Source: Mycobacteriales bacterium
GTDB taxonomy: Bacteria > Actinomycetota > Actinomycetes > BP-191
Assembly: GCA_036382875.1 (NCBI GenBank)
Contig: DASVPJ010000041.1
Span: forward strand, 2,505 to 66,504
DNA length: 64,000 nt
Reading direction: 5' to 3'
In this document: positions 11,016 to 41,784 of the stretch, one piece after another
How the letters are laid out: every line of letters starts with the position of its first letter
How positions within the stretch are numbered: position 1 is the stretch's first letter
Program-made: the position numbers and the translations under genes
Notes under the pieces: generated by a model
Seen by the model: only the letters and a program-made list of their open reading frames with translations
The model's database searches: none
Told to the model about the DNA's origin: nothing

Positions 11016-11125
11016 TCCCGCCGTCCCGCGACCGGCTGCGCGAGCTGGGCTACGAGCTCGGCTCGCGCGCCGAGGGCGGCCTGTCCGAGGGCGCCTGGTT
11101 CGCCACCGCGCCCGACGGCGCGCCG

Positions 11126-24998: not shown

Positions 24999-24999
24999 C

Positions 25000-26127: not shown

Positions 26128-26191
26128 GGACCCGCATCGTACGGACGCGCCGCACTTCGCGGCGGTCCACCCACGACCACGGGAGGACGGC

Positions 26192-26530
26192 ATGACGCAG
26201 ACCATCGTTGACGAGATCGACCGCACGTTCCTGCTGCTGCGCGTTGCGGCAGCCCGCGACGACGGCGCGGACGAGGCGACGGGGACGCGCTGGTGCGCGC
26301 ACGTGTGCGACCCGGCGAGCCCGCTCGCGGGTCTCTACGCCTTCGCGGACACCCTCGCCGAGGCGCGGGACGCGGTGACGGTCCTGGCGTGGACGGCGGT
26401 ACTCGCGGGCGAGCTGCTGCCGTTCGGCTACACCGCCGACGACCTGGCAGGCATCCACGTCGCGGTGACGACGACCACCCCGTACGACGCCGCCTGGCTC
26501 AACGCCGCAGTCGCGAACGACGCGGCGTAG
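26192..26530 (+). CDS. Hypothetical island protein
   Basis: ATG after GGGAGGACGG SD; GC3-rich; 112 aa, no recognised domain. Confidence 0.5.
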   Translation: MTQTIVDEIDRTFLLLRVAAARDDGADEATGTRWCAHVCDPASPLAGLYAFADTLAEARDAVTVLAWTAVLAGELLPFGYTADDLAGIHVAVTTTTPYDAAWLNAAVANDAA

Positions 26531-26542
26531 GTAGGAGGCGCC

Positions 26543-27028
26543 ATGACGACACAGATCGACGGCTGCCGGCCGCACCTGACCAGCGACCGCGCGGACGAGT
26601 CGTACTCCTCCTGGGTCGGTCGGGCGCGGTGCGCCGGGTGGTCGGACGTGTTCGGCGACGAGAGCAGCAACGACGAGGCGCTGGCGCTCTGCGGGGCGTG
26701 CCCGGTGCTGCGGCAGTGCCGCCGATGGGCGCTGCGCACCGCGGTGGACGGCGTGGCCGGCGGCATGACGTCCGCGGAGCGCGCGGCGTGGCGGCGCGAG
26801 CACGGCGAGCCGGAGCCGGTCGTGAGCGTCGAGGACTTCCTGCTGACCGAGGTGGTCAGCGCCGACCGGACGTGGGGCCGTGGCCGCTCCGAGGCGATCC
26901 TCAACGCGGTAGCACGCTGGACCGACGACGGACACACCGCTCGCGAGATCGGCCTCCGGCTCGGCGTCACCCGACGCACCGTGAACAGGCTCCGCGCTAC
27001 CTGCCGCGAATGCCGACTCATCGCCTGA
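26543..27028 (+). CDS. WhiB-like (Wbl) Fe-S transcription factor with extra C-terminal HTH
   Basis: Cys motif C...C..C....C (CAGW...CGACPVLRQCRRWAL), GVAGGMTSAER turn; C-terminal AREIGLRLGVTRRTVNRL; typical of actinophage/AICE regulators. Confidence 0.75.
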   Translation: MTTQIDGCRPHLTSDRADESYSSWVGRARCAGWSDVFGDESSNDEALALCGACPVLRQCRRWALRTAVDGVAGGMTSAERAAWRREHGEPEPVVSVEDFLLTEVVSADRTWGRGRSEAILNAVARWTDDGHTAREIGLRLGVTRRTVNRLRATCRECRLIA

Positions 27029-27130
27029 CCCGACCCCGTTCCTCGACCTCTGCTGTTCTCCCGACCCCTTCGTCTCTTCTTCTTCGCTTCTCTCCTGATG
27101 TTGTTGATCTTGTTGCTGACCTGATCCGCT

Positions 27131-27338
27131 CCACCCCGCTGACCTGCCCTCCCTTCTCCAATGTGCGTGTCGAGGGAGTGCCACATGTTCGGGGGTGCGA
27201 AGCAGCCCCGAACATGTGGCACGACCGACCCCCGGCGGAGTGCAAAACCGCAGGTCAGCGGGGTGGAGCGGCCTCCGAAAAAGATCTTCGAGGGTGGTTC
27301 CTCGGGTGGTGCCTCGGTGCGTGGACCGAGGCACCACC
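27131..27338. promoter_or_regulatory. Cluster of strong nested palindromes upstream of xis-int (candidate regulatory/recombination-accessory region)
   Basis: 17-bp inverted repeat ccaccccgctgacctgc (27131-27147) and gcaggtcagcggggtgg (27250-27266) enclosing a perfect 17-bp stem hairpin (27178-27222); a further 14-bp stem hairpin at 27305-27338; contains CTGACCTG also present in att core and att-adjacent arms. Confidence 0.5.
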
Positions 27339-27475
27339 CTGAGCGGGTCCCCGGTTACGAGAACTTCACGGAGATCTCACCGCCGTGGTAACTCGGCCGT
27401 GAACCTTTCGTGAAGTCCCGAGCCGACCGTCCCCCCACGTCCCGGTAGCCCGGGACGGGCGAGAGGAGAGCCACC

Positions 27476-27745
27476 ATGAGCGCCATCGACCCGGCGTCGT
27501 TGCCGCCCGTTCTCGACGTCCCCACGGCCGGCCGGCTGCTCGGACTCGGCCGCTCCGCGGCCTACGACCTCGCCGTCGCCGAGCTCTGGCCGACGCCGGT
27601 CCTGCGGCTCGGACGGCGGCTGCGGATCCCGACCGCTCCGTTGCTGGCGCTTCTCGGCCTCGACCCTGGTCCGCTGTCGCAGTCCGGTGGCATGGTGACC
27701 GGGTCACCAACTGCCCCGGCTGCCTCCGAAGGAGGCAGGCCATGA
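27476..27745 (+). CDS. xis: Excisionase/Xis-family HTH DNA-binding protein
   Basis: GAGAGGAGAG SD; MerR/AlpA-like HTH (LDVPTAGRLLGLGRSAAYDLAVAELWPTPVLRLGRRLRIP); stop overlaps integrase ATG (ATGA). Confidence 0.7.
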   Translation: MSAIDPASLPPVLDVPTAGRLLGLGRSAAYDLAVAELWPTPVLRLGRRLRIPTAPLLALLGLDPGPLSQSGGMVTGSPTAPAASEGGRP

Positions 27746-28974
27746 CGAAAGAGTCGGGCGTGTACCAGCGGCACTCACGGCGCTGCCCGCGCAACGCGGG
27801 CGGTCGTGGCTACGCGCCGCACCGGTGCACCGGCACGTGGTCCTACGTCATCGACGTGGGCCGGGACGCCAACAACGAGAGAAGGCAGGAGACGAAGGGA
27901 GGCTTTCCGACCAAGCGGGAAGCGGTCGAGCAGCGGCGCAAGCGTCTCGGCGAGCTGAGGTCGCGGACGGGCGAGGCGTACGGGACGACGGTCGGCGCGT
28001 ACCTGGAGCAGTGGCTGTCGTGGAAGCGCGGCCTGCGGGACAGCACCCGGCTGTCCTACCGGCAGCACCTGGACGACTACCTGGTCCCGGCGCTTGGGCA
28101 GTACCGGCTCGCCGACCTGGAACGTCGGCCGGAGCTGATCGAGCAGATGTTCTCCAACCTCGTCACCGGGGTCAGCGGCAAGCCGTTGTCGCCGGCGTCG
28201 GTGCGGCGCATCTACTCGACGCTGCGCAGCGCGCTCAACAGCGCGGTGAAGCGGCGGATGCTGGCGCACAACCCGGCGTTGCACGTCGAGCTGCCGCGGA
28301 CGGCGCTGTACCGGCCGGTCGTGTGGGACGCGCAGCAGGTCGGCATCTTCCTCGACGCGATCCAGGGCCACCGGCTCTACGCGCTCTACGGCGTCGTCGT
28401 CCTGACCGGACTCCGGCGCGGCGAGGCGCTCGGGCTCCGGTGGGAGGACGTGGACCTGGACGAGGGCGTGCTGCACGTACGCCAGCAGGTCGTCGCGGTC
28501 GGCACGGAGGTCCGCATCGGCCCGCCGAAGACGAAGGCGGGGGAGCGGACGGTCGCGCTGTCCGAGGCGACCGTGGCGATGCTGCGCGAGCACCAGGCGC
28601 GGCAACGGCGCGAACGGCTCGCGTGGGGCGAGGCGTGGCACGACAGCGGCCACGTGTTCACCTACGAGGACGGCCGGATGCTGCGGCCGGACCACGTGAC
28701 GCACCTGTTCCGCAGGCTGGCGAAGGAGGCGGGGCTGCCGCTGATCCGGCTGCACAACCTGCGGCACACCAGCGCGAGCCTCGCGCTGGCGGCGGGCGTC
28801 CCGATGAAGGTCGTCAGCGACCGGCTCGGCCACTCCAGCGAGTCGATCACCTCGGCGCTCTACACGGTCGTCGTGCCCGCTGTGGCACGCGAGGCGGCCG
28901 AGCGGATCGCCAACGTCGTGCTGCTGCCGAGGGCACGGAGCGACGAGCACGAAGCCGTGTTAGCGCGGCGTTAG
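27742..28974 (+). CDS. int: Tyrosine-type site-specific integrase
   Basis: C-terminal catalytic region (LRRGEALGLRWEDVD, HNLRHTSASLALAAGVPMKVVSDRLGHSSESITSALY); adjacent to tRNA-Lys and attR. Confidence 0.9.
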   Translation: MTKESGVYQRHSRRCPRNAGGRGYAPHRCTGTWSYVIDVGRDANNERRQETKGGFPTKREAVEQRRKRLGELRSRTGEAYGTTVGAYLEQWLSWKRGLRDSTRLSYRQHLDDYLVPALGQYRLADLERRPELIEQMFSNLVTGVSGKPLSPASVRRIYSTLRSALNSAVKRRMLAHNPALHVELPRTALYRPVVWDAQQVGIFLDAIQGHRLYALYGVVVLTGLRRGEALGLRWEDVDLDEGVLHVRQQVVAVGTEVRIGPPKTKAGERTVALSEATVAMLREHQARQRRERLAWGEAWHDSGHVFTYEDGRMLRPDHVTHLFRRLAKEAGLPLIRLHNLRHTSASLALAAGVPMKVVSDRLGHSSESITSALYTVVVPAVAREAAERIANVVLLPRARSDEHEAVLARR

Positions 28975-28984
28975 CGCATGACCG

Positions 28985-29070
28985 GGAGAGGGCCAGGCCC
29001 GAGCGGGAAAGCCCAGGTCAGACGGGTGCGCCGCCAGGGACTTGAACCCCGAACCCGCGGATTAAGAGTC
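28985..29070. repeat. attR: direct repeat overlapping 3' half of tRNA-Lys
   Basis: Partner of 19767..19851. Confidence 0.7.
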
Positions 29071-29099
29071 CGCTGCTCTGCCAATTGAGCTAGCGGCGC
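29027..29099 (-). tRNA. tRNA-Lys (anticodon CTT), CCA not encoded
   Basis: Minus-strand cloverleaf GCGCCGC-TA-GCTC-AATTGGCA-GAGC-A-GCGGA-CTCTTAA-TCCGC-GGGTT-CGGGG-TTCAAGT-CCCTG-GCGGCGC-A; 73 nt. Confidence 0.85.
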
Positions 29100-29181
29100 G
29101 TGGCGCAGACTCTACACGACCTTCCGCCGGGGCCGCGCGCGCGTTACCGTCGTACGTCTGGCCAGCGGAGGGGCGGGGATC

Positions 29182-30150
29182 GTGCTGCGCGTACGGCGGT
29201 CGGTCGCGGCCGGGGTGGCGATCGCGGTGCTCGGCGTGCCGTGGGCCATCGCCGCGCCGCAGGAACGCCCCCTCTGCCTCGACCCGGTGATCGCCTGCCC
29301 GAAGCCGCCGCCGCCCGAGCCGGACCCGGTGCCGAAGCCGGACACGAGCGCGTACCGGGGCCTCGGCACGTGGGTCGACGCGTACGACTTCGCGCGCGAG
29401 TTCGGCAACGCCACCACGCGGCCGAGCGCGGTGGACGAGATGGCGCAGCAGGGCGTGAAGACGCTCTACATCCAGGCCGCGAAGGACCGCGACGGCGTCG
29501 GCGACCTGGCCAGCCCGGACCTGCTCGGGCAGTTCCTCGAACGCGCCCACGCCCGGCGGATGAAGGTGATCGCCTGGTACCTGCCGCGCTTCCTCGACCA
29601 GGAGCGCGACTTCCGCCACGTGAAGGCGATGCTCGACTTCCGCTCGCACGGCCACGCGTTCGACGGCGTCGGCATCGACATCGAGTCGCGCGAGAACGGC
29701 GACGTGAAGCAGCGCAACGACCGCCTCGTCGCGCTGTCGCAGCGGGTGCGCAAGGCGGCGGGCATGCGCAGCGTCTCGGCGATCGTGGTGCCGCCGGTGG
29801 TGACGGACGTGATGAACCCGAAGTTCTGGCCGGACTTCCCGTGGAGCCGGATCCGGAGCAGCTACGACGTCTGGGTCCCGATGGGCTACTGGACCAACCG
29901 CAAGCCGGACAGCGAGTACCGCGACGCGTACCGCTACACGACGGAGAACGTCCGCCTGCTCCGCGAGAACCTGAACGACCCCAACGCCGTGGTCCACGTC
30001 GCCGGCGGAGTCGGAACCAAGGCGACGAGCAGGGACTACGAACGCTTCGTGCTGGGCGCCCGCGACAGCCGCAGCGTCGGGCTCTCCGTCTACGACTGGG
30101 CGGTCACGGCGCGCAGCGCGTACCCGATCCTGCGCAAGGGGCCGAGCTAG
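29182..30150 (+). CDS. Secreted hypothetical protein (possible glycoside-hydrolase-like TIM-barrel)
   Basis: GTG after GGAGGGGCGGGG SD; signal peptide; GC3-rich; Pro-rich linker then about 250-aa domain. Confidence 0.6.
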   Translation: MLRVRRSVAAGVAIAVLGVPWAIAAPQERPLCLDPVIACPKPPPPEPDPVPKPDTSAYRGLGTWVDAYDFAREFGNATTRPSAVDEMAQQGVKTLYIQAAKDRDGVGDLASPDLLGQFLERAHARRMKVIAWYLPRFLDQERDFRHVKAMLDFRSHGHAFDGVGIDIESRENGDVKQRNDRLVALSQRVRKAAGMRSVSAIVVPPVVTDVMNPKFWPDFPWSRIRSSYDVWVPMGYWTNRKPDSEYRDAYRYTTENVRLLRENLNDPNAVVHVAGGVGTKATSRDYERFVLGARDSRSVGLSVYDWAVTARSAYPILRKGPS

Positions 30151-30155: not shown

Positions 30156-30497
30156 TTACGCGCCGTGCAGCGCCTCGTCGCGGGTGTCGTAGACCGGCAG
30201 CTCCTGGTCGAGGTGGGCCAGCACCAACGCCGGCCGCACCGGCGACGACGGCGGGCACGCGACGCGCAGCGAACGGTGGTGCTCGTGCGCGAGGTCGCAG
30301 CCGCGCCGCAGCGCGCGGACGCCGCCGGCGAGCAGCGTGCCGCTCTCGGTGAGGTCGACGACGACGTCGTAGCCGTCGCGGGCGACGAGCCCCGCGATGG
30401 CGCCGCTGACGGCCGGAGCGCTGCGTGGCGTGAGGTCACCCTTCACGATGAGCAGCGCGACACGGTTGTCCTGGTCCAGGTCGATGTCGACGCTCAT
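30156..30497 (-). CDS. STAS-domain protein (anti-sigma-factor antagonist-like)
   Basis: ATG 30497 after GAGGCGG; SpoIIAA-like pattern (VDIDLDQDNRVALLIVKGDLTPRSAPAVSGAIAGLVARDGYDVVVDL). Confidence 0.7.
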   Translation of the reverse strand: MSVDIDLDQDNRVALLIVKGDLTPRSAPAVSGAIAGLVARDGYDVVVDLTESGTLLAGGVRALRRGCDLAHEHHRSLRVACPPSSPVRPALVLAHLDQELPVYDTRDEALHGA

Positions 30498-30596
30498 CAC
30501 GACCGCCTCGGGTAGCGCGCACGGACTAGTAACGCACTAGTCATCGGCCCACCGGAAGGGGGTCTGAACGGATCAGCCGGGAATCACCCGGTTGGC

Positions 30597-31334
30597 TCAA
30601 CGCGGCAACGGCCCCGGCATGCCGAGCAGCCGGCCGCGCCCGAGCGTGGCGCCGAGCGCGGTCGCGGCGGAACGCCGCTGCTCGGTGTCGACGCCCAGCG
30701 CGATCACCTCGATGCCGCGGCGGCCCGCGAGGTCGAGCATCGCGCGCACCCCGTCGGACACGGCGCCGGAACGGCCGGGCCGGTCGAGGTCGAGCTTGAC
30801 GACGTCGGGGCGCACCTGGTCGAGCAGCCCGAGGGCGCCCGGAACGTCCGCCACGTCGTCGGCGACGATCCGCCACCCCCAGCCGCGGAACTCGTCGATG
30901 CCCGAACGCAGCGCCGCCGGGTCGGCGAACGCGTGCGCCGGCACCTCGGCCGCGACCTTCACGGAACGCCGCCCGCGACCCCAGGAGGTGGCGAGCCGCG
31001 GCGGGCACGCGCTGCCGTACGTCTCCGGCTCAGGCGTGATCCACATCTCGACGTCCACGCCGCGCTCGAGGTACTGGTCGAACGCGAGGCAGCGGAACGC
31101 CCAGTCCAGCCGCTCCACGAGGCCGAGGCCCTGGGCCGACTCCAGCAGCGCGAGCGTGCTGTTCAGCTCGGTGCCGGCCTGGCCGCGACCGGTCGCCTTG
31201 TAGCCGACGAGCGTGTCGTCGTCGAGCCGGCGGACGGGCTGGAAGTCGGGGCCGAGCTGCTCGGGCCGCTCGATGAGCCGCTCGATGAGGGCGCGGTCGT
31301 TGCGGAGCTTCTCCACGGAGTTCAGCAGGGACAT
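30597..31334 (-). CDS. EAL-domain protein (c-di-GMP phosphodiesterase-like, possibly degenerate)
   Basis: C-terminal EAL-type blocks (IVADDVADVPGALGLL, DVVKLDLD, IEVIALGVDTEQ). Confidence 0.65.
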   Translation of the reverse strand: MSLLNSVEKLRNDRALIERLIERPEQLGPDFQPVRRLDDDTLVGYKATGRGQAGTELNSTLALLESAQGLGLVERLDWAFRCLAFDQYLERGVDVEMWITPEPETYGSACPPRLATSWGRGRRSVKVAAEVPAHAFADPAALRSGIDEFRGWGWRIVADDVADVPGALGLLDQVRPDVVKLDLDRPGRSGAVSDGVRAMLDLAGRRGIEVIALGVDTEQRRSAATALGATLGRGRLLGMPGPLPR

Positions 31335-31360
31335 GCAGGTGGTCTCGGCACGAATGCCGT

Positions 31361-32395
31361 TCACCCTGAGAGCGCCGCCGTCCGCCGGCCGATCGCGGGC
31401 ACGAACTTGAAGCCGTGCCCCGAGCACGGCGAGCAGACGACGAGCGCCCCGTGGCGGCGCAGCACGAACGACTCGTCCGGCGTCGTCGTGTACAGGCACG
31501 AGTCCGCGCGGGTGGCCCGCGGCTCGGCGCCGGGCAGCCACTCGGCGGCATACTCCTCGACCCGCCGCACCGCGGCGGCGTCGACGCCGAGCCGCGCGTC
31601 GGGCGTCACCGGACGGCCGCTGCCGTGCTCGCCGACCTTGACGCCCTCGCCGGGCGCGCCGAGGCCGTAGTACGGCACGCCGTCCGCGCGGTGGTGGATC
31701 CACGACGGCCAGGCCGCGTCGCTCGGCAGGTAGACCGGCTGCTCCTGCGTGACCCGGAACGGCGGCAGGTCGTCCGGCACCGGCAACGACGCGAGCAGCC
31801 CCGGCAGCCACGCGCCGGCCGCGACGACGGCGACCCGCGCCTCGTACTCGTCGCCGGTGTCCGTCGTGACGGCGACGCCGTACGACGTCTCGCGCGCGGC
31901 CACGGCGGTCACGCCGAACCGCACGTCGGCGCCGTGCCGCGCCGCCTCCGCGTGCAACGTCTCCACCGCCGCGTCGGCGTCGAGCCGCCCGGCGTCGGGC
32001 TGGTGCACGACGTCGGAGGAGAACCGCAGCGCCGGCCACCGCTCGGCCGCCGCCGCGGCGGCCAGGCGCTCGTACGGCAGGCCGTGCGCGCGCAGGTTCG
32101 CCTCGATGTCGTCGACCGCCACGCCGTGGTCGACGCCGCCGGTGACCTGCAGCAGGGACGCGCCGCTCTCGCGTTCGAGCAGCCGCCACAGGTCGTACGC
32201 CTCGCGGGCCATCGCGACGTACGAGCCGTCGGCGTAGGCGAGCCGGAAGATGCGCGAACGGCCGTGCGAGGAGCCGTGCACGTGGTGCCCGGGGTGGCGT
32301 TCGAGCAGCGTCACGTCGCGCCCGGCGCGGGCCGCCCACCAGGCGGTCGCCGAGCCCATCGCGCCGCCGCCGACGACGAGCAGGTCCGTACGCAT
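31361..32395 (-). CDS. FAD-dependent oxidoreductase (sarcosine/N-methyltryptophan oxidase SolA-like)
   Basis: Rossmann dinucleotide motif DLLVVGGGAMGSATAWWAA; C-terminal pattern ending CSGHGFKF. Confidence 0.8.
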   Translation of the reverse strand: MRTDLLVVGGGAMGSATAWWAARAGRDVTLLERHPGHHVHGSSHGRSRIFRLAYADGSYVAMAREAYDLWRLLERESGASLLQVTGGVDHGVAVDDIEANLRAHGLPYERLAAAAAAERWPALRFSSDVVHQPDAGRLDADAAVETLHAEAARHGADVRFGVTAVAARETSYGVAVTTDTGDEYEARVAVVAAGAWLPGLLASLPVPDDLPPFRVTQEQPVYLPSDAAWPSWIHHRADGVPYYGLGAPGEGVKVGEHGSGRPVTPDARLGVDAAAVRRVEEYAAEWLPGAEPRATRADSCLYTTTPDESFVLRRHGALVVCSPCSGHGFKFVPAIGRRTAALSG

Positions 32396-32508
32396 CGCGG
32401 GCAGGCTACGGCGCCGCGCGCGGCGAATGCTTGACCCGGAGCCCGTTCCGCCGGTTTGCTCCACCTCTGCCCGAGATGCCCGGTCGACCCCTCTGCAAGG
32501 AGACCCTC

Positions 32509-32736
32509 GTGCGCCGTCTGCTCGCCCTGCCCCTCGTCGCGTTCGCGTTCGCGACCCCCGCCTCCGCCGCCGTGTCCTGCCACGGCGTGTACTCCGGCAG
32601 CACCGACGTCAGCGTCTGCGCCGGCATCGAGTGCGTCGACCTGTGCGGTCCGCGCCTCGTCGTCGACCCGCGCTGCTCCGGCGCGCCCTCGATCGCCGCC
32701 GCGCTGTGCGCCGCGATCGACGCGTACGAGCTCTGA
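32509..32736 (+). CDS. Small secreted 6-Cys protein, paralog 1 of 3 (75 aa)
   Basis: GTG after AAGGAGAC SD; signal peptide VRRLLALPLVAFAFATPASA; mature about 55 aa with 6 Cys. Confidence 0.55.
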   Translation: MRRLLALPLVAFAFATPASAAVSCHGVYSGSTDVSVCAGIECVDLCGPRLVVDPRCSGAPSIAAALCAAIDAYEL

Positions 32737-32762: not shown

Positions 32763-32975
32763 ATGCGCCGTCTGTTCGCCCTGCCCCTGATCGCCGCGGC
32801 GTTCGCCACGGCGAGCCCCGCCGGCGCGGTCGCCGCCTGCACGCCGACCGTCGTCGGCGCCTGCGTGTCGTACCAGTGCGGCGAGATCTGCGGGCCGGTC
32901 GAGGTGTGGCTCTACTGCGACCTCGACAGCCACCCGCGCATCCTCGCCTGCGACCTGATCAACCAGCTCGGCTGA
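32763..32975 (+). CDS. Small secreted 6-Cys protein, paralog 2 of 3 (70 aa)
   Basis: ATG after AAGGAGACC SD; MRRLFALPLIAAAFATASPAGA signal peptide; 6 Cys. Confidence 0.55.
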   Translation: MRRLFALPLIAAAFATASPAGAVAACTPTVVGACVSYQCGEICGPVEVWLYCDLDSHPRILACDLINQLG

Positions 32976-33004: not shown

Positions 33005-33238
33005 ATGCGTCGTCTGCTCGCCGGTGCGGCTGTCGCCGCCGTGGCGTTCGGCGTCACCGCCCCCGCGTCCGCCGCCTGGTCCTGCCACGGCGTCGAGTCC
33101 GGCACCACCCGTGCCGGCGTCTGCGCCGGCTCGTGGTGCGTGGACGAGTGCTGGATCGTGGCCTGGACCTACTGCGAGGGCGCGAACGCCAAGGTCTGCA
33201 CCGCCGTCGACGGGCTCGGCGCCCCGCCCGGCCGCTGA
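33005..33238 (+). CDS. Small secreted 6-Cys protein, paralog 3 of 3 (77 aa)
   Basis: ATG after GAAGGAGCC SD; signal peptide MRRLLAGAAVAAVAFGVTAPASA; 6 Cys (WSCHGVESG...CAGSWCVDEC...YCEG...VC). Confidence 0.55.
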   Translation: MRRLLAGAAVAAVAFGVTAPASAAWSCHGVESGTTRAGVCAGSWCVDECWIVAWTYCEGANAKVCTAVDGLGAPPGR

Positions 33239-33251: not shown

Positions 33252-33704
33252 CTACGGCGCGGTGACCGACGCCCCCTCGCACATCAGGTAGTAACGGGTC
33301 GTCGGGTTGATGTTGGCGTACTGCGCCACGCAGGTGAACGCCGCCGGCGCGCCGGTGGACGCGCACAGGCCGGCGAACGCGATGAGGCCGGCCACGTAGG
33401 CGACCTGGCACAGCCCCAGCTGCAGGGGGCCGCAGGAGCCGTACATGGTGCCGGTGCCGACCGCGATGGTGCCGACGACGGTGCCCGAGAACCCGCAGGA
33501 GTACGTCCCCAGGATGCCGCGGGTACCGACGCTCGTGATCGTGCCGGTGAACGCCACGGACTGCGGCTGCGAGTAGAGCCCGAAGCCGGGCGTGAACGTT
33601 CCGCTGCCGGTCAGCACGAACACGTCGGCGTTCGGGGCTGACGCGGCCGGGCTTGCCATGGTGAGGGGGAGCGCGAGCACGGCGACGAGGGGACGGAGCT
33701 TCAT
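33252..33704 (-). CDS. Secreted protein, uncharacterised paralog family member A (150 aa)
   Basis: ATG 33704 after AGGAGAA SD; signal peptide; family motifs (VLTGSGTFTPG, QSVAFTGTITSVGT, SCGFSGT, GSCGP, NINPTTRYYLMC). Confidence 0.7.
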   Translation of the reverse strand: MKLRPLVAVLALPLTMASPAASAPNADVFVLTGSGTFTPGFGLYSQPQSVAFTGTITSVGTRGILGTYSCGFSGTVVGTIAVGTGTMYGSCGPLQLGLCQVAYVAGLIAFAGLCASTGAPAAFTCVAQYANINPTTRYYLMCEGASVTAP

Positions 33705-33735
33705 GGTTCTCCTGGCTGGGTGGGCGGTGCCGCTG

Positions 33736-34203
33736 CTACGGCACCCGGTAGTCGACCGCGACGACGCACGCGAGGTTGAACCGCGTCGTCGGGTTGACGT
33801 TCGTGGGCTGGAACACACAGTCGAAGTGCAGGCCTCGCGACGCGCTGGCGATCACGGCCGTGGTCAGGGAGAGAGTGGGACCTACGCGCACCAAGACCAT
33901 GTCGACGCCCGACGTCGGGCCACAGCTCCCGGAGAGCGAACCCAATCCGAGGAGCACCGAGCCGATTTGGTCCGTTCCCGAGAAGCTGCACGAGTATCCG
34001 CCGAGACCCACAGGGAACGTGCTTGCGTAGCTTGCCGTCCCGGTGAACGAGATCGACTGCGGGGTCGGGACCACCGTAAGGCCGGGGCTGAGGGTCCCGC
34101 TGCCGGTGATCACGTAGACGTTCGCGTCCAGAGCCTCGGCGGGCGGCGCGACCGGAAACGCGAGCGCGGCGGCGGCGCCAGCGACGAGCAGGCGGTGCGA
34201 CAT
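33736..34203 (-). CDS. Secreted protein, paralog family member B (155 aa)
   Basis: ATG 34203 after GAGGGGGGA SD; motifs ITGSGTLSPGL, QSISFTGTA, SCSFSGT, GSCGP, CVFQPTNVNPTTRFNLAC. Confidence 0.7.
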   Translation of the reverse strand: MSHRLLVAGAAAALAFPVAPPAEALDANVYVITGSGTLSPGLTVVPTPQSISFTGTASYASTFPVGLGGYSCSFSGTDQIGSVLLGLGSLSGSCGPTSGVDMVLVRVGPTLSLTTAVIASASRGLHFDCVFQPTNVNPTTRFNLACVVAVDYRVP

Positions 34204-34477
34204 CGTCCCCCCTCGGGGCTGGGTGTGCCGCGACCGTAGAGGCGCGGGGGGATCGGCGACACGGCCAGGTGGCCAGGTCCCTCACCCTCGTGTCGACCGG
34301 CCTGAGGCGGGCCGCGCGCCGCGACGACCTGACGGGAGCCGCCCTCTGCGGCTGGGTCGACGCCGGAGACCGGGGGCGACCGTGCCACTGCCGTCCATGA
34401 CGTCACCGCCGGTCCGAGCCGGAACGCGCGGGAGGGGCGGGCCGCCGCGCGACCCGCCCCTCCCGCGTGCAGCGTCG

Positions 34478-34945
34478 TTACGAGATCTTCGCGAGCCCCG
34501 CGGCGCACGCGAGGTTGTAGCGGGTGGTCGGCCGGACGTTCGTCGGCTGGAACACGCAGTCACCGGCGCCGATGCCGCCGGTGCCGCCGTTGATCGGGCA
34601 CACGACGATCACGTGCACGCCGGTGAACACGAGCGAGCAGCCCGGGAACGACAGCGGGCCGCAGGAGCCCGAGACGGTGCCGGTGCCGCCGGCCATGTTG
34701 CCGAAGCCGGTGCCGGAGAACGAGCACGGGTACGAGCCGGGCAGGCCGTCGGTGCCGACCACGGTCGCGGTGCCCGTGAACGAGATCGACTGGTTCTGCA
34801 CGACCTCGGTGAGACCCGGCGAGAGGGTGCCGCTGCCGGTGATCGCGGCGACGTCGACGTTGGCGGCGACGGCGGGCGACGCCGACAGCAGCGCGAACGG
34901 CATCGCCAGCGTGGCACCGAGGAAGAGCGAGCGGGTGAGCTTCAT
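34478..34945 (-). CDS. Secreted protein, paralog family member C (155 aa)
   Basis: ATG 34945 (MKLTRSLFLG...); motifs ITGSGTLSPGL, QSISFTGTA, CSFSGTG, GSCGP, CVFQPTNVRPTTRYNLAC. Confidence 0.7.
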   Translation of the reverse strand: MKLTRSLFLGATLAMPFALLSASPAVAANVDVAAITGSGTLSPGLTEVVQNQSISFTGTATVVGTDGLPGSYPCSFSGTGFGNMAGGTGTVSGSCGPLSFPGCSLVFTGVHVIVVCPINGGTGGIGAGDCVFQPTNVRPTTRYNLACAAGLAKIS

Positions 34946-35071
34946 GCGGGTGTGCCTTTCGTCGAGGGGTGGGTACCGACGCAAGGCACGCTAGGCAGCG
35001 CGGCGGGGACGCAGTAGCGCCACCCGGCCACTTCTGCTGGCCACCCGGCCAGGTGCCGGGAGCCCACCTGG

Positions 35072-36280
35072 CTACGTCCGGCGGGACGCCGTGCTGCCGG
35101 CGTAGCGGTTGCGGACGCCGCTGTAGACGACCTTGACGGTCTTGCCGCGCACGGTCCGCAGGGTGCTCTTGCCGCGCGAGTCGGTGCGGTACGACGCCAC
35201 CGACTTGCCGTCGACGTACCACGTCACGACCTGCCCGCCGAGCGGCTTGCGGAGGTCGTCGACGAGCGTCGCGGTGACGTACGCCGTGGTGCCGGACACG
35301 GTCTGCGCGAGCGACGCCGACGTCGGCTGGATCCGCACGGTGAGCGGCGCGGTCGCGGTCGCGGCCTGGAGCGAGTCGTCGCCCGCCCACGACGCGGTGA
35401 CCGGGTACGACCCGGCCAGGCTGCTGATCGCGAACGACGCCGAGAACGTGCCGTCCGCGCCGGACGTGACCTGCGCGGTCTTGCCGGCGACCGAGACGGT
35501 GACGTTCTTGCCGGCGACGGCGGTGCCGGCGGTGTTGGTCAGCGTGCCGCCGATGACCGCGGTGTGGCCGGTGACGACGTACGCCGGAACGGTCAGCGCG
35601 AGCTTGCCCGCCGGCGGCGCGAAGCAGGTGTTGTCGCCGAGGGTGTACGCCTGCGCGGCCGCGTCCTTCGCGGCGGCGGTGTCGGCGCTCATCATCGTGA
35701 CCACGAAGTCGGCCTGCGACGCGGCGGTCACCGAGCTCATGACGATGCCGTCGGTGAGCGGCTCCTTCGCCGCGGCCGCGAGCGGCGCGCGGTCGGCCGT
35801 GATGACGACGGTGTGCGTCTTGGCGTCGAACACCGCCTCGACCTTGGCGTCGGCGATCGCGCCGCCGTCGAAGTTCGCGCCGGTGAGCGGCGGCGCGACC
35901 ATCGGCCCGGCCACGTCGTGCACGGCGGCGGCCTCGCTCTCGCCGGCGAAGATGTCGACGACCTTGCCGCTGGGCAGCTTGTACGACACCACGAACTGGT
36001 GGCCCGCCCCCAGCGACGGCGAGCTGAGCTCGGCCACCTTGATGTAGGCCCGCAGCTTCTCCGGCGGGGAGGCGAGCACGACGCTGAGGATGTCGAGGTC
36101 GGAGTCGTTCGGCGCCCCGGAGACGCTGGCGTCCTCCGCGTCGTCGGTGAACGTCACGCAGCCCTCGCGCGGCGTGGGCGGCGCGGCGGGCGCCTCGTCG
36201 GCGGCGTGGCCGGCGGGCGGCGCGACGGTCGCCGCGACCGCGGCGACGACGATCAGGCCGGTCTTCGTGATGGCGATGCG
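35072..36280 (-). CDS. Secreted protein with bacterial Ig-like repeats (start GTG 36280 or 36343)
   Basis: Signal peptide VRIAITKTGLIVVAAVAATVAPPAGHA; Thr/Ala/Val-rich beta repeats (TVSVAGKTAQVTSGADGTFSA..., VTATLVDDLRKPLGGQVVTWYVDGK). Confidence 0.65.
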   Translation of the reverse strand, partial: RIAITKTGLIVVAAVAATVAPPAGHAADEAPAAPPTPREGCVTFTDDAEDASVSGAPNDSDLDILSVVLASPPEKLRAYIKVAELSSPSLGAGHQFVVSYKLPSGKVVDIFAGESEAAAVHDVAGPMVAPPLTGANFDGGAIADAKVEAVFDAKTHTVVITADRAPLAAAAKEPLTDGIVMSSVTAASQADFVVTMMSADTAAAKDAAAQAYTLGDNTCFAPPAGKLALTVPAYVVTGHTAVIGGTLTNTAGTAVAGKNVTVSVAGKTAQVTSGADGTFSASFAISSLAGSYPVTASWAGDDSLQAATATAPLTVRIQPTSASLAQTVSGTTAYVTATLVDDLRKPLGGQVVTWYVDGKSVASYRTDSRGKSTLRTVRGKTVKVVYSGVRNRYAGSTASRRT

Positions 36281-36418
36281 CACGGGGGTACGTCCGTTCT
36301 CTTCTCGGCCGCGGGTCTGGGCGTCCCGCGGCAACAGCGCCACGAACCTAGGGGCCTTGCGTGAGGGGCGGTACAGCCAGGTGGCTACGTCCGGGATGGC
36401 CAGGTGGCCATTTACGGC

Positions 36419-37474
36419 TCAGCAGCCGGGGACCGCCGACGACACGCGGCAAGGGGTGCCGGCGCCGCCGTAGTTGTGACCGGTGTTGTCGACGCCCACC
36501 CACCCGTACGGGGTGTGCACGCCGATGTGCTCCTCGTTCGTCTGACCGTTCTGCATCAGGTTGCCGGGCTTGCCGACGCGGGCCACGACCGGGGTACGGC
36601 GGGGCGCGACGTCGACGAGGGGCGCGGCCGGCTCGGTGCCGCCGGTGCGCGCCGGGGCGGACGCCACGCGGGTGCCGGCGGCGGCCGCCGCGCCCGACCG
36701 GGCGGCGGGGAGGGGCGCGGAGCGGCCGGCGTCCTGGACGTACACGGTGCCCCGCGGCGCGGCCATCGCCCGCGGCGCGGAGCCGTGCGGCGCGACGGTG
36801 TACGTCACCGCGCCCGCCACGGCGACGGCGAGCGCGGCCGCGCCGGCGAACGAGAAGCCGCCGCCCTGCGCGAGCTTGGCCGCCCTGACCGCGGCGGTGC
36901 GGCGGCGGAGCCGGACCAGCGCGCCGAGCCCGAACGCGCCGCTCGGCACGCTGGCGAGGGCCCGGCGGAACTGGTTGCGCGCGCGGAACAGCTTCTGCCG
37001 CACGGCGTTGTCGTTGGTCCCCAGGAAGCGGGCGATCTCGCCGACGCTCATCTCGTCGAACGCCTGGAGCGCGAGCACCTGGCGGGACGCGGGGGCGAGG
37101 CCGTCGAGCACCTTGTGCACGGCCTGGCTGCGGTCGGCGGCGAGCACCGGCTCGTCGGCGGGCGGCGCCACCTCGCGCTCGTAGGTCTCCTCGGTGAGCG
37201 GCTGCTCCGGCGCCTGCGCGCGGGCGAAGTCGCGGGCGACGTTGACGGCGATCGCCGCGATGTACGGCCACGGGTCGCGGGACGGGTCGATCCGGTGCGC
37301 GTGCAGCAGGACCCGGACCATCGTCTCCTGCGCGACGTCCTCGCTGTCGAACGCCGGGAACCGGCGCGCCGCGAGGCCCTTCACCCGGCCGTAGTAGCGG
37401 CGGTAGAGCACCTGGAACCGCTCGTCGTGGTCGTCCGCGCGTTCGGCGGCGACGTCGATCGGCTGGGCGCTCAC
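36419..37474 (-). CDS. ECF sigma factor with C-terminal membrane-anchored extracytoplasmic extension (sigma/anti-sigma-like fusion)
   Basis: GTG 37474 after GGAG SD; sigma region 2 (FQVLYRRYYGRVKGLAARRFPAFDSEDVAQETMVRVL) and region 4 (LALQAFDEMSVGEIARFLGTNDNAVRQKLFRARNQF) followed in the same frame by a TM helix (FSFAGAAALAVAVAGAVTY) and a 150-aa C-terminal domain. Confidence 0.7.
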   Translation of the reverse strand: MSAQPIDVAAERADDHDERFQVLYRRYYGRVKGLAARRFPAFDSEDVAQETMVRVLLHAHRIDPSRDPWPYIAAIAVNVARDFARAQAPEQPLTEETYEREVAPPADEPVLAADRSQAVHKVLDGLAPASRQVLALQAFDEMSVGEIARFLGTNDNAVRQKLFRARNQFRRALASVPSGAFGLGALVRLRRRTAAVRAAKLAQGGGFSFAGAAALAVAVAGAVTYTVAPHGSAPRAMAAPRGTVYVQDAGRSAPLPAARSGAAAAAGTRVASAPARTGGTEPAAPLVDVAPRRTPVVARVGKPGNLMQNGQTNEEHIGVHTPYGWVGVDNTGHNYGGAGTPCRVSSAVPGC

Positions 37475-37616
37475 GGGGTCACTCCGGGGATGTCCTGTCG
37501 GGCGAGGGCACCTTCTCAAACGTTTCCTGGGTGTGTCCGTAACGTTCGACGGGGAGAGCCCGTACACCTTCCAGAGGTTCGGTCTGCCCAGGACCGCCCA
37601 GGAGGGGGATACGGGG

Positions 37617-39683
37617 ATGTCCACGGCATCCGCCGTACGCGGCCCGCACTGGCCGCGGCTGACCCCTGCCGTCGCCCTGGCGGACATCGCCACGGCGATG
37701 AACTCCTCCCTCGGCCTGGACGAGATCCTGCGCACCGTCGTGCGCCTGACCTGCGACGTCCTGGCCGCCAACCGGGCCACGATCCTGCTGCTCGACGACC
37801 TGATGCGGCTGGTGCCGAAGATGTCGCACGGCGCCGTGGAGGACCCGGCCGCGCTGGCCCGGTTCCGCGAGATGCCGCCGATCGCGCTGGCCTCGATCCC
37901 GCACGCGATCGACCTCATCGGGAAGGCGGCGGCGCTGCCGATCAGCGACGTCGGCGCCTCCGACCTGATCCCGCGCGAGTGGATCGACCAGTTCGGGCTG
38001 CAGTCGCTGCTGATCGCGCCGATCGTGGCCGACGGCGAGACGCTCGGCGCGCTGGTGGCGGACTACGTGGACGAGCGCCACGAGTTCACGCCCGCGGAGA
38101 CCCGCACGATGGAGGGCATCGCGGCCTGCTGCGCCACCGCGATGCGCAACGCCCGCCTGTACGACGAGGCCGTGCGCCGCGCGCAGAACCTGGACGAGAG
38201 CCTCCGCGTCACCGCCGACCTGAACGCCGCCACGACGTCGCGCGGCGTCTGCGACGTCGCCCTGGACGGCCTGCTGCGGGTGCTCGAGGGCAGCCGGGCG
38301 AGCCTGCACGTCTACGCCGACGACGCGCTCGTCACGCTCGCGACGCGCGGCGGGTTCCACCCCGACCCGGGCCGGTACCCCCTCGCGGCGGACGAGCGGG
38401 CGGCGCTCGTCGCCTTGGCGGACGAGCGGGGCGGCATCGCCGACGCGGTACGCCACCTGGCGCCGTTCGCCGCGCTGCCGGACGACCTGCCCACGGTGCT
38501 GCTGCCGCTCACCGACGCGCCCACGCCGGGCTTCGTGCTCGTGACGTGCGCCGAGCTGCCCGACGACACCCGCTGGCGCCTCGCCCGCTCGGTCGCCGGC
38601 CAGGTGTGGCTCGCGCTGGACCGCGCGCGGCTCGCCGAGCAGACCCAGCGCCGGTTCGAGGACCTCCAGACGATCTACCACCTGGCCGACGAGCTGGCGC
38701 TCGCGCCGGACCTGGACACCGTGGTCGCGCGGATCGCCGGGCCGGTCCGGGTGGCGACCGGCTGCGAGGCCATCGACGTCTACCTCTGCGGCTCGCGCGG
38801 CAGCGAGCGGTTCGCCAGCCGGCCGCCCGGCAAGGCGCTCTCCGCGCTGATGCGCGCGTGGCGTACGCCGCCGTCGCACCCCGTCGAGCACGGCGGGCTG
38901 CTGGTCGTGCCGATGGTGCTCGACGGCGCGCTGGTCGGCCTGCTCCGCGTCCGCGAGGGCGCCGAGCACCCCGGCCCGGCCGAGGAGGACTTCCTCATGG
39001 CCATCGCGGCCGGCGTCGCGAGCGTCGTGTCGCGCGCCGAGCTGACCGCCAAGGTCGGGGAGGCGCAGCGCGAGCTCGCCGTCGTCCAGGAGCGCGAACG
39101 CATCGCCCGCGACCTGCACGACACGCTCGGCCAGACCCTGTTCGGCCTCGGGCTCCAGCTCGCGCAGTGCGAGCAGGCCGCCACCGACCAGGCGCTGCGC
39201 GCGTCGCTGCGCCAGGCGAAGGGCGCCACCGACGCGGCCGCGGTGCAGCTCCGGCAGGCGATCCACGCGCTGGCGTTCCTCAAGGGCGGCCGGCTCGACC
39301 TCGTCGGCTCGCTGCGCGCGCTCACCCGCGAGCTGCCGGAGGGCCTCAACGCCGTCTTCCAGACCTCCGGCCGCGCCGTCGCCGTCGAGCCGGCGCGCGC
39401 CGAGGCGCTCCTGCGCGTGGCGCGCGAGGCGCTGGTCAACGTCGAGAAGCACGCGCTGGCCAGCGCCGTGTACCTCGAGCTGCGCTACCGCAGGGGGACG
39501 GTCGAGCTGACGGTGACCGACAACGGCACCGGGCTCGGCCAGCGCGCGTCCGCGCTCGCGGCGTCCGGGCTGCACTTCGGCCTGCGCAGCATGAAGCGAC
39601 GGCTCGACGAGGTCGGCGGGGAGTTCTCGTTCGAGAACGTCGTCCCGCACGGCCTCCGGATCACCGCGAGGGTGCCCGTATGA
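37617..39683 (+). CDS. Sensor histidine kinase with three cytoplasmic GAF domains (HisKA_3/NarX-type)
   Basis: ATG after GGAGGGGGA SD; H-box ERERIARDLHDTLGQ; HATPase_c motifs (TVTDNGTGL, GLHFGLRSMKRR); no TM segments. Confidence 0.85.
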   Translation: MSTASAVRGPHWPRLTPAVALADIATAMNSSLGLDEILRTVVRLTCDVLAANRATILLLDDLMRLVPKMSHGAVEDPAALARFREMPPIALASIPHAIDLIGKAAALPISDVGASDLIPREWIDQFGLQSLLIAPIVADGETLGALVADYVDERHEFTPAETRTMEGIAACCATAMRNARLYDEAVRRAQNLDESLRVTADLNAATTSRGVCDVALDGLLRVLEGSRASLHVYADDALVTLATRGGFHPDPGRYPLAADERAALVALADERGGIADAVRHLAPFAALPDDLPTVLLPLTDAPTPGFVLVTCAELPDDTRWRLARSVAGQVWLALDRARLAEQTQRRFEDLQTIYHLADELALAPDLDTVVARIAGPVRVATGCEAIDVYLCGSRGSERFASRPPGKALSALMRAWRTPPSHPVEHGGLLVVPMVLDGALVGLLRVREGAEHPGPAEEDFLMAIAAGVASVVSRAELTAKVGEAQRELAVVQERERIARDLHDTLGQTLFGLGLQLAQCEQAATDQALRASLRQAKGATDAAAVQLRQAIHALAFLKGGRLDLVGSLRALTRELPEGLNAVFQTSGRAVAVEPARAEALLRVAREALVNVEKHALASAVYLELRYRRGTVELTVTDNGTGLGQRASALAASGLHFGLRSMKRRLDEVGGEFSFENVVPHGLRITARVPV

Positions 39684-40339
39684 CCGCGCTGTCCGTCTAC
39701 CTCGTCGACGACCACCCGGTCGTCTGCTCCGGCCTCGACGCGCTGCTGTCCGCCCAGGAGGACATCGAGGTGGTCGGCTACTCGCACAGCGCCGAGCTGG
39801 CGCTCTGCGACCTCCGGGAGCGCCCCGCCGACGTGGTCATCGTCGACCACCGCCTCGGCGGCTCGATGGACGGCGTCGACCTGTGCCGGCGGATCACCGA
39901 GCCGCCGTACCTCGCCCGCTGCCTGGCCATGAGCGCCAGCGCCGACGGCGAGAGCGTGCGGTCCTTCGTCTGCGCCGGCGCCAGCGGGTTCCTGCTCAAG
40001 CACGCCGACCCCGCCCGCATCGTGGACGCGGTCCGTACGGTGGGCCGCGGCGCGTCGTTCATCGACCAGCGGGTGGCCGAGCTGATCGCGCAGGAGCTGA
40101 ACCCGGCCACCCGCGGCCGGATGCTGCTCACCGCGCGCGAGCGGGAGATCCTCGAGTACGTCGCGCGCGGGCTGTCGAACCGCGAGATCGCCGTGCGGCT
40201 CTGCGTCTCCACGAGCTCGGTGAAGAGCTACGTCTCGAACCTGCTCCGCAAGCTGGGCGTGACGCACCGGACGGAGGCGGTCGCCGTGGCCGCGCGCGAA
40301 GGGCTGCTGGCTCTCGTGTCGGGCAGCGGTGTCCGATGA
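39680..40339 (+). CDS. NarL/FixJ-family response regulator (REC plus LuxR HTH)
   Basis: ATGA overlap with kinase stop; REC motifs (VYLVDDHPVV, VVIVDHRLGG); C-terminal LuxR HTH (LTAREREILEYVARGLSNREIAVRLCVSTSSVKSYVSNLLRKLGV). Confidence 0.85.
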   Translation: MTALSVYLVDDHPVVCSGLDALLSAQEDIEVVGYSHSAELALCDLRERPADVVIVDHRLGGSMDGVDLCRRITEPPYLARCLAMSASADGESVRSFVCAGASGFLLKHADPARIVDAVRTVGRGASFIDQRVAELIAQELNPATRGRMLLTAREREILEYVARGLSNREIAVRLCVSTSSVKSYVSNLLRKLGVTHRTEAVAVAAREGLLALVSGSGVR

Positions 40340-40421
40340 CGTCCGGAAATGGCCACCTGGCCAGTTTGGTGATGGCCACCTGGCCAACGGCATGTGGCCA
40401 GGTGGCGCTTACGTGCCACAT

Positions 40422-40480: not shown

Positions 40481-40942
40481 ATGAAGAAGCTCGTTCGCTC
40501 GCTCTTCGCGGGTGCCGCGATCGCGATGCCCATCGTGATGGTCACCGCGTCCCCGGCCGCCGCGCTCGACGCGTTCGTCATCACCGGCTCGGGCACGATC
40601 AGCCCCGGCCTGACGGCCGTCCCGACGCCGCAGTCGGTCAGCTTCACCGGTACGGCGACGAGCGTCGGCACGACGGCGGTCCCGGGCTCGTACCCGTGCT
40701 CGTTCTCCGGCACGGACACGCTGGGCTCGGCGGCCGAGGGCGTCGGCACGGTGTCGGGCTCCTGTGGCCCGTTCGCGTTCACGAACTGCCAGTTCGTCCG
40801 GATCGTGGGCGTCGTGGTCGTGGTCTGCCCGCCGCAGGGCAACCCGCCGCGTACCGCCGTCGCGGTCTGCGCGTTCCAGCCGACCAACGTCAACCCGACC
40901 ACGCGGTACAACCTCGTGTGCGCGGGTGTCGTCGGCCCGTAG
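40481..40942 (+). CDS. Secreted protein, paralog family member D (153 aa)
   Basis: ATG after AAAGAGG SD; motifs ITGSGTISPGL, QSVSFTGTA, CSFSGTD, GSCGP, CAFQPTNVNPTTRYNLVC. Confidence 0.7.
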   Translation: MKKLVRSLFAGAAIAMPIVMVTASPAAALDAFVITGSGTISPGLTAVPTPQSVSFTGTATSVGTTAVPGSYPCSFSGTDTLGSAAEGVGTVSGSCGPFAFTNCQFVRIVGVVVVVCPPQGNPPRTAVAVCAFQPTNVNPTTRYNLVCAGVVGP

Positions 40943-41057
40943 CTCGGCCCGCGAACTCCGTTTCGCGTAGCGCGTCACTTCCGGTGGTGCCCGGCGTTTA
41001 CCCGTCGGGCACCACCGGATCATTTTTCCCAGCAGAACCGACGAAGGAGCTCCAGCC

Positions 41058-41645
41058 ATGAGGATCCGCACCGCACTCGTCGCCGCGGCGGCCGTCGCGA
41101 TCGCGGCGCAGAGCGGGGCCGTCGCCGCGACGCGCCCCAAGCCCAAGCCGCTGTGCAACCTCGTGACCGACAAGCCCGGCGACCTGACCACCGGCACGAA
41201 GTCGCTCGACATCGTCGGCGCCGACATCGTGAGCGACGGGAAGCGCCTGACGGTCGTCGTCCGCCTCGCCAAGCTCGCCGCGGTGGGCAGCGAGCCGACG
41301 TCGCCGACCGGTGGGTACTTCGAGTTCCAGTTCACCCACAACGGCGCGGGCCAGAAGCTGTTCGCCCAGATCACCGCGGCGGGCAGCAAGTTCGGCCCCG
41401 GCGCCGGCGCCAAGGGTGCGTTCGACCTCGCCAGGAACGAGGTCCGGATCACGGTCAACGCCAACGAGCTCTTCGGCTCGCCGGTGCTGCGCCAGGGCGA
41501 CCTGCTCACGAACTTCGTCGTCAGCACCGACATCGGCAACCCGGTGTACGACTCCGGCAGCACGCTGTACATGGCGGGCGACGTCGCGAACGGGTACAAG
41601 CCGTACCCGGTCGGCGCGGCCTCCTGCGTCAAGCTCGGCGCCTGA
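41058..41645 (+). CDS. Secreted hypothetical protein (195 aa)
   Basis: ATG after GAAGGAG SD; signal peptide MRIRTALVAAAAVAIAAQSGAVAA; GC3-rich. Confidence 0.6.
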   Translation: MRIRTALVAAAAVAIAAQSGAVAATRPKPKPLCNLVTDKPGDLTTGTKSLDIVGADIVSDGKRLTVVVRLAKLAAVGSEPTSPTGGYFEFQFTHNGAGQKLFAQITAAGSKFGPGAGAKGAFDLARNEVRITVNANELFGSPVLRQGDLLTNFVVSTDIGNPVYDSGSTLYMAGDVANGYKPYPVGAASCVKLGA

Positions 41646-41784
41646 CCCCACGCTCCGCGGCCCCGCCGGTCCCAGCCTCCGGCGGGCGCCGCGGCCTTCT
41701 GCGAGCGAGGCGTAACGGCAGGCGGGGTGGCGCCGTACACCTTGTGACGGACTCGTGCCGTCCGGTTGTCCAGGGAGGGCTTCA

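Follow-up and report, generated by a model that had tools for sequence, protein, structure and literature searches.

A family of small secreted barrel proteins encoded beside a Liv-type importer in uncultured Actinomycetota

What do four small exported proteins of an uncultured actinobacterium do outside the cell? The question is raised by a stretch of 64,000 nucleotides from a Mycobacteriales bacterium (GCA_036382875.1, contig DASVPJ010000041.1, positions 2,505 to 66,504), called the window here, in which four genes, A to D (Table 1), encode paralogous proteins of about 150 amino acids (aa). The four genes are real, and they belong to a family with export signals, paired cysteines, a high-confidence barrel model and conserved linkage to an ATP-binding cassette (ABC) importer; operator arrays and terminators accompany them in the window. 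A tentative answer is that A to D are extracellular small-molecule binders serving the adjacent uptake module, and confidence in such binders under two-component control is low to moderate.

The barrel protein family

The original prediction had described A to D as a diversifying family of four secreted paralogues, which share several sequence blocks and about six conserved cysteines and match no recognised family. The reading frames lie exactly where it had placed them, with A to C on the minus and D on the plus strand, and their products are identical to the public gene calls VF519_15730/35/40/65 of a metagenome-assembled genome (MAG) named 'Mycobacteriales bacterium'. The proteins align over their full length; B, C and D share 42-49% identity with A and up to 60% among themselves, and the similarity of A and C (BLASTP, E = 1.7e-26) is far above chance. 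The predicted blocks are found in the paralogues, with A as the most divergent copy (variants LTGSGTFTPGF and CVAQYANINPTTRYYLMC). Since C and D have positional orthologues in a Frankiaceae MAG (72% and 68% identity, respectively), these two can be regarded as old, conserved paralogues; the term diversifying suits only A and B, for which alone close orthologues are wanting.

The absence of any recognised family also held up. In Pfam-A and NCBIfam, including the domains of unknown function (DUF), A to D were unmatched at E <= 1 save for one Ribosomal_L36 noise match. When 142 diverse relatives were scanned against Pfam, all matches were sub-threshold and any one family was hit by a single member at most (the lone Lipocalin_4 match is noise), and profile searches of the PDB sequences with 62- and 149-sequence alignments found no match. 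A word-indexed search of 5.8 billion clusters recovered 62 relatives, and an exhaustive hidden Markov model search of 1.84 billion representatives recovered 286 at E <= 1e-3, with 96 at E <= 1e-10; the 149-sequence profile search gained little beyond two distant solitary members.

Nearly all members are 130-190 aa long; a few proteins have two barrels in tandem, or a Pro/Thr linker together with a C-terminal domain of no known family. All traced members come from metagenomes or MAGs (Mycobacteriales/Frankiaceae/Frankiales and Acidimicrobiaceae), and their source annotation, where there is any, is 'hypothetical'. A four-sequence pattern scan of the GTDB species representatives recovered one Frankiaceae MAG and no other, a tblastn search of a plasmid collection gave no family match, and a full-text literature search on the family features and the operator sequence found nothing of relevance. 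The family, new in sequence and unannotated, has a fold of a known type; as far as the databases and literature searched show, both the gene module and the operator are undescribed. Whatever its function, the family would make a clean candidate for a Pfam entry of its own.

Residue conservation, cysteine and periodicity statistics were derived from 188 single-domain members. The N-terminus has a basic and a hydrophobic segment closing in A-x-A (A25 in 90%, A27 in 95%). The cysteines sit at three strand-to-strand pair positions: 74/95 (both present in 160 members, neither in 20, a single one in 8), 130/147 (126, 61 and 1) and 103/116 (94, 71 and 23). Their number is even in 184 of the 188 members, with four (n = 97), six (n = 71) or two (n = 12) per protein. 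The predicted six were found in mature A, C and D; B has four. Because of this N-terminus and the even, co-varying cysteines, A to D are predicted to be exported by the Sec pathway and to form extracytoplasmic disulfides, in agreement with the secretion proposed earlier.

An AlphaFold2 model of C, built on the 62-sequence alignment, showed eight antiparallel strands (predicted local distance difference test score, pLDDT, 87; predicted TM-score 0.74). Structural scores were 12.3 and 10.1 for DUF3224 proteins (2q03/2ooj), 9.4-10.3 for Diels-Alderases, 10.0 for pyocyanin demethylase, 9.2 for allene oxide cyclase (AOC), 8.2-9.0 for dirigent proteins, 7-8.7 for avidins and 9.2-10.5 for the outer-membrane barrels NspA/OmpW/PagL/OprF. 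Matches of all classes share 2-14% identity with the query, and the Foldseek search against the PDB gave nothing significant (best E = 0.048, TM-score <= 0.45). The fold class is known, and the modelled kinship to the AOC-like barrels is one of topology only. The DUF3224 proteins, allene oxide cyclase and dirigent proteins, together with the Diels-Alderases AbyU, PyrI4, PloI4, Tsn15 and AbmU and the pyocyanin demethylase PodA, also form eight-stranded antiparallel barrels of ~120-150 residues; however, their identity to the present family is 4-14%, with no Pfam match and Foldseek E >= 0.048. Unlike these proteins, the family has a Sec signal, two or three disulfides, hardly any charged residues and a Ser/Thr outer face, and its genes lie beside an ABC importer instead of in a biosynthetic cluster. 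The calycins (avidin/streptavidin, lipocalins, YceI) had structural scores below those of the AOC-like barrels and showed no sequence signature.

Residue periodicity split the inward from the outward faces cleanly. On strands 1-4, Ser/Thr make up 61% of the outward positions, charged residues 5% and hydrophobic ones 11%; of the inward positions, 35% are Gly and 47% hydrophobic. The outer face of strands 5-8 is of mixed composition; no exposed hydrophobic patch conserved across the family was found. Outer-membrane barrels (NspA, OmpW, OmpA, PagL, OprF N-domain) have a lipid-facing hydrophobic belt, whereas the family has Ser/Thr outside and a Gly/hydrophobic interior. A lipid-embedded membrane barrel, a candidate prompted by the outer-membrane matches, was ruled out by this composition. 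The hosts, known as actinobacterial MAGs (Frankiaceae, Acidimicrobiaceae), are assumed to lack an outer membrane. Strands 1-4 are strongly conserved, including the outward Ser/Thr, and strands 5-7 are variable with indels. The mature protein is 60% G/T/V/A/S and only 6.8% D+E+K+R (K 0.4%), with a grand average of hydropathy of +0.45 to +0.61. Such a near-chargeless, Ser/Thr-covered surface is unusual and may interest structural biologists; ice binding and glycosylation were considered as speculative explanations of the Ser/Thr array.

The conserved polar or charged residues are nearly all inward (Q52 in 79%, R107 in 80%, and Y143), as are the near-invariant glycines G39 (98%), G78 (93%), G87 (84%) and G89 (98%). 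Judged from strand order, Q52, R107, Y143 and the inward glycines would share one end of the barrel, and together with the periodicity this hints at a candidate pocket there. An acid at 80/82 occurs in 142 of the 152 members with R107 and in 5 of the 36 without it (Fisher 1e-21, phylogeny ignored). Two types occur in the window: the Arg/acid type (B and D), and an aromatic type without the acid (A and C).

Gene linkage and operator arrays

The barrel genes recur in a fixed order: barrel gene(s), an anchored propeller protein of 800-916 aa, a Peripla_BP_6 substrate-binding protein and the permease/ATPase. This order was found in the window and in seven further loci (L001, L004, L005, L006, L008, L011 and L015), that is, in 8 of the 11 independent loci with enough flanking DNA, and it spans Frankiaceae-type and Acidimicrobiaceae MAGs. 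There are one to four barrel copies per locus, and in the core subfamily the barrel genes always lie beside the propeller gene. In L012, L013 and L024 distant members are found amid unrelated housekeeping genes with no transporter near; the linkage is therefore strong but not obligatory.

The importer comprises Peripla_BP_6, a BPD_transp_2 permease and two ABC ATPases with the BCA_ABC_TP_C tail (E-values 2.5e-33, 1e-59, 1.2e-29 and 1e-09); its LivG-like match (E = 5e-75) is under the equivalog cut-off. By these domains the module is a Liv/HAAT-type ABC importer. The 893-aa propeller protein belongs to a rare, unannotated family with 9 matches, including a homologue in an Acidimicrobiaceae MAG (27% identity over 657 residues, E = 1e-35). 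Its model, built on a 9-sequence alignment, had a pLDDT of 57.6 and matched generic WD40 and amine-dehydrogenase propellers in Foldseek, with no functional clue. The genes for the sigma factor, the GAF kinase, the response regulator, the 423-aa and 195-aa proteins and the small Cys-rich proteins described below occur in Frankiaceae-type loci only. By eye the 195-aa protein had seemed related to the N-terminal part of the 423-aa protein; BLASTP found no similarity, and the idea was dropped.

Arrays of the 14-mer TGGCCACCTGGCCA, an inverted repeat of TGGCCA with a 2-nt spacer, lie upstream of B, C, D and the 423-aa gene. At up to three mismatches the 14-mer has 26 matches, against 7.2 expected. 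At up to two mismatches there are seven sites, six of them in four intergenic regions and the seventh, at 29499, inside an unrelated gene; three neighbours with three mismatches complete the arrays, in which the sites are 21-23 nt apart. The orthologous promoters of L001 and L006 have the same arrays; the three-site architecture of D is kept there, and conservation of the whole D-type promoter extends to a TACCGT (TAnnnT) -10-like element and a CGTCGGTTTTGCCCCC block. In the metagenome loci L016, L017 and L022 the response-regulator gene directly precedes the barrel genes, and the gap between them holds one TGGCCA-NN-TGGCCA site in each. These five are the other loci that carry the response regulator; in loci without it the motif is missing, save for two 2-mismatch sites in L008. 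The repeat is of the kind bound by a dimeric NarL/DevR-type regulator, and the response regulator may bind the arrays and activate sigma-70-type promoters from a position overlapping the -35 region.

The kinase/regulator pair has the domains of a DevS/DevR-like system (GAF, HisKA_3 and HATPase_c; NarL/GerE) and is likely to be one. As in DevS/DosT-DevR (DosR) of mycobacteria, the kinase is soluble and the regulator is of the NarL family, with DevR as its closest solved relative; the kinase ATPase domain weakly matches DosT/DevS. DevR promoters are organised as multiple palindromic sites, and the target promoters here are built alike, with two or three such sites spaced by about two helical turns; the operator TGGCCA-N2-TGGCCA is unrelated to the Dos box. 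Unlike in DevS-DevR, an ECF-type (extracytoplasmic function) sigma factor gene with a membrane-spanning extension is inserted beside the pair.

The barrel genes do adjoin an ECF-type sigma factor and a GAF histidine kinase, as the original prediction had noted; the stress-sigma control that it drew from this is not supported, since the promoter element in common is the TGGCCA repeat, which tracks the response-regulator gene, and no ECF-type -35 before the barrel genes is conserved across orthologues. Three genomes retain the promoter of the sigma gene itself, GGAAGG-N15-CGTCGAA (GGAAGG-N15-CGTCGAACGTTACG), and a CGTCGG element is common to the promoters of C and D. An ECF-type promoter for the barrel genes is not claimed, because its -35 part is unconserved; the sigma factor may take part in their control. 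The C-terminal extension of the sigma factor (~170 aa) has a predicted transmembrane segment and an extracytoplasmic tail ending ...CRVSSAVPGC, and the protein looks like a one-component, membrane-anchored sigma factor.

B lies upstream of A with a spacing of 31 nt, and the two probably form one transcript. This short gap and the stem-loops after C and D suggest three transcription units: C, B-A and D.

Possible functions of the barrels

The tentatively favoured explanation, that A to D bind small molecules for the adjacent uptake module, draws on the class of fold, the polar residues and glycines clustered on the inward face, the two pocket types and the importer linkage. The exported, disulfide-stabilised barrels would bind a small molecule, probably one that is scarce or dissolves poorly, in a pocket at one end. 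They would work outside the cell together with the anchored propeller protein and the tethered Liv-type binding protein in capture, hand-over and uptake. Each barrel gene or gene pair of this lineage would form a transcription unit of its own, switched on by the GAF kinase and the DevR-like regulator through the TGGCCA-N2-TGGCCA arrays, which sit just upstream of a -10-like TAnnnT element. If so, the roughly 286 cluster representatives, none of them annotated, make up a new protein family within a conserved extracytoplasmic module of six to ten genes in abundant uncultured soil Actinomycetota, and the operator would be a ready regulatory handle for a DevR-like regulator. No long-standing problem is solved hereby, and the system is known here from sequence and models alone.

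A more specific form of this explanation is rather doubtful: it takes the barrels as the outer, soluble tier of an undescribed uptake apparatus in single-membrane Actinomycetota, a hemophore-like relay with an AOC/dirigent-type fold. Several nearly uncharged secreted barrels of two pocket types would capture an insoluble or scarce substrate and pass it to the anchored propeller, then to the tethered Liv-type binding protein and then to the importer, and the whole relay would be switched on by the DevR-like regulator through the new operator. Hemophores and the NEAT-domain Isd relay are extracellular capture proteins feeding binding-protein-dependent importers. The present system resembles them in its small secreted paralogues beside a substrate-binding protein and an ABC importer and in its dedicated regulation; it differs in fold, in lacking a heme or metal signature, in its Liv-type transporter (branched-chain amino acid/urea/amide), and in being known from genes only. 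If true, an outer capture tier and a propeller protein would be added to a classical binding-protein-dependent importer.

Several points weigh against small-molecule binders. The likeness to solved barrels is topological only, and the Peripla_BP_6 protein is just remotely similar to any solved structure. The putative pocket is placed from periodicity and strand order, and the Arg/acid coupling, whose statistic takes no account of phylogeny, could be a mere structural salt bridge. The low charge and the Ser/Thr surface are unexplained by a simple carrier role, and the distant members in L012, L013 and L024 have no transporter nearby.

The surface leads to the first alternative, which is unlikely: the barrels might be structural cell-surface or coat proteins, self-assembling or packed onto the wall like hydrophobins, chaplins or BslA, and would change the surface properties when the two-component system fires. 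Like those proteins, they are small, secreted, multi-paralogue, Cys-containing and charge-poor, and the composition and outward Ser/Thr of strands 1-4 would suit such a role. Several paralogues with their own promoters and strong terminators, as for abundant proteins, co-regulation with an Ig-like adhesin-type protein and the tandem two-barrel fusions also agree with it. However, there is no Pfam match to hydrophobin, chaplin or rodlin; the four or six cysteines form three strand pairs in a closed eight-stranded barrel and do not follow the 8-Cys pattern of hydrophobins. No family-wide hydrophobic patch is exposed, the outward face of strands 5-8 being mixed. Moreover, an importer in 8 of 11 loci is unexpected for a coat protein, and the conserved buried Gln/Arg/acid/Tyr cluster would be left unexplained.

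That same cluster brings up cofactor-free extracellular enzymes or 'dirigent'-type templates (for cyclisation, isomerisation or coupling), with the neighbouring transporter moving the product or the substrate. The barrel pocket of dirigent proteins is lined by Arg/Asp/Tyr, the inward Arg/acid pair together with Gln and Tyr is conserved here, and Frankiaceae-type loci keep an FAD oxidase (DAO) gene close by. Such a function seems quite unlikely: the identity to these enzymes is low (4-14%) with no profile match, the Arg/acid pair is missing in half of the window paralogues (A and C), and the neighbourhood contains an ABC importer and no biosynthetic gene cluster. The matched Diels-Alderases belong to antibiotic pathways, whereas the barrels here have signal peptides and disulfides.

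An equally improbable function is that of protein-binding accessory subunits without any small-molecule ligand, which would dock on the 893-aa, the 423-aa or the tethered binding protein and diversify their exposed surface. The constant strands 1-4 and the variable, indel-bearing strands 5-7 could be the docking and the variable face, and both the copy number of one to four per locus and the constant propeller neighbour of the core subfamily fit this; however, there are solitary members without a propeller gene nearby.

The weakest alternative, that the open reading frames (ORFs) are spurious products of a high-G+C genome, was prompted by long overlapping ORFs on the opposite strand, as seen throughout this window (G+C ~73%), and is refuted by the G+C content at third codon positions (GC3; 87-97% in the A to D frames vs 64-86% in the overlapping rival ORFs), the 286 homologous representatives, the conserved synteny, the confident fold model and the paired cysteines.

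Neighbouring genes and further features

Table 1. Positions of the barrel genes, operator-like sites and neighbouring genes in the window.
Feature	Position	Strand	Remarks
Barrel paralogue A	33252-33704	-	150 aa; 6 Cys; aromatic at 107, no acid at 80/82
Barrel paralogue B	33736-34203	-	155 aa; 4 Cys; R107 and D80 type
Operator-like inverted repeat upstream of B	34262-34275		TGGCCACCTGGCCG, 1 mismatch
Stem-loop directly 3' of C	34427-34467	-	terminator-like; 19-bp G+C stem, no T-run; z = -4.1
Barrel paralogue C	34478-34945	-	155 aa; 6 Cys; F107, no acid; sequence used for the model
Three operator-like sites upstream of C	35017-35074		at 35017, 35038 and 35061; 21-23 nt apart
423-aa secreted protein	35072-36343	-	weak Big_1 / invasin-D3 Ig-like matches; same operator
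Two operator-like sites upstream of the 423-aa gene	36374-36410		at 36374 and 36397 (perfect)
ECF-type sigma factor	36419-37486	-	~355 aa; C-terminal extension with transmembrane segment
Cytoplasmic GAF + HisKA_3 + HATPase_c histidine kinase	37533-39683	+	true start possibly 37614
NarL/LuxR-family response regulator	39680-40339	+	best solved relative DevR, E = 9e-32
Three operator sites upstream of D	40350-40408		40350 and 40373 perfect; 40395 with 2 mismatches, inverted
Barrel paralogue D	40481-40942	+	153 aa; 6 Cys; R107 and D80 type
Intrinsic terminator 3' of D	40980-41019	+	17-bp stem, then T-run; z = -6.6
195-aa secreted protein, no known family	41058-41645	+	conserved in Frankiaceae-type loci
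893-aa propeller protein	41755-44436	+	signal peptide; N-terminal beta-propeller-like; C-terminal beta domain; conserved C-terminal transmembrane anchor
Membrane-tethered Peripla_BP_6 substrate-binding protein	44433-45953	+	start overlaps the stop of the 893-aa gene
Fused LivH/LivM-type permease and LivG-type ATPase	45966-48959	+	997 aa
Second ABC ATPase, LivF-like	48956-49696	+	
184-aa membrane-anchored helical protein	49693-50247	+	conserved 3' of the transporter in L004, L005 and L006

Next to the transporter genes, the 201-aa product of 50240-50845 (+) combines a lipoprotein-type signal (LAAC) with a long linker rich in Thr, Gly and Pro; a homologue lies 3' of the transporter in L006 as well. 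Between two barrel genes of L001 a 433-aa secreted beta-propeller-like protein is encoded (10506-11807, -), which has no counterpart in the window. The Acidimicrobiia-type loci contain another unannotated secreted family (146-149 aa, mature N-terminus AASYTI...), whose genes are divergent from the barrel genes (L004 4145-4585, -; L005 8704-9153, -; L008 9308-9751, -); this family is absent from the window.

Three tandem genes at 32509-32736, 32763-32975 and 33005-33238 (+) encode small secreted Cys-rich proteins (70-77 aa) with six cysteines in a mature part of ~50 residues. Each gene has an AAGGAG ribosome-binding site, their GC3 is 92-97%, and no Pfam match was found for their products. These genes run convergently to barrel gene A and form another uncharacterised family of paralogues, of which two or three copies are located at the same place in L001 and L006. 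The genes at 30156-32464 (-) and 29182-30150 (+) encode a STAS-domain protein, an EAL-domain protein, a DAO-family FAD oxidoreductase and a 322-aa secreted protein with no Pfam match; they lie in the same order beside the cluster in L001 and L006.

Positions 20000-29100 have a G+C content of 62-63%, against ~74%, and carry defence-type genes with TIR domains; this region is probably an integrated defence island. Its genes include a CAP12/Pycsar TIR protein (21482-22588, +), a DUF7701 protein (24226-24750, -), a ThsB-like TIR protein (25000-25443, -) and a tyrosine integrase (27742-28974, +), and it abuts a tRNA-Lys(CTT) gene (29025-29099, -). At the syntenic position the Frankiaceae MAG L001 carries an integrase too, with other cargo.

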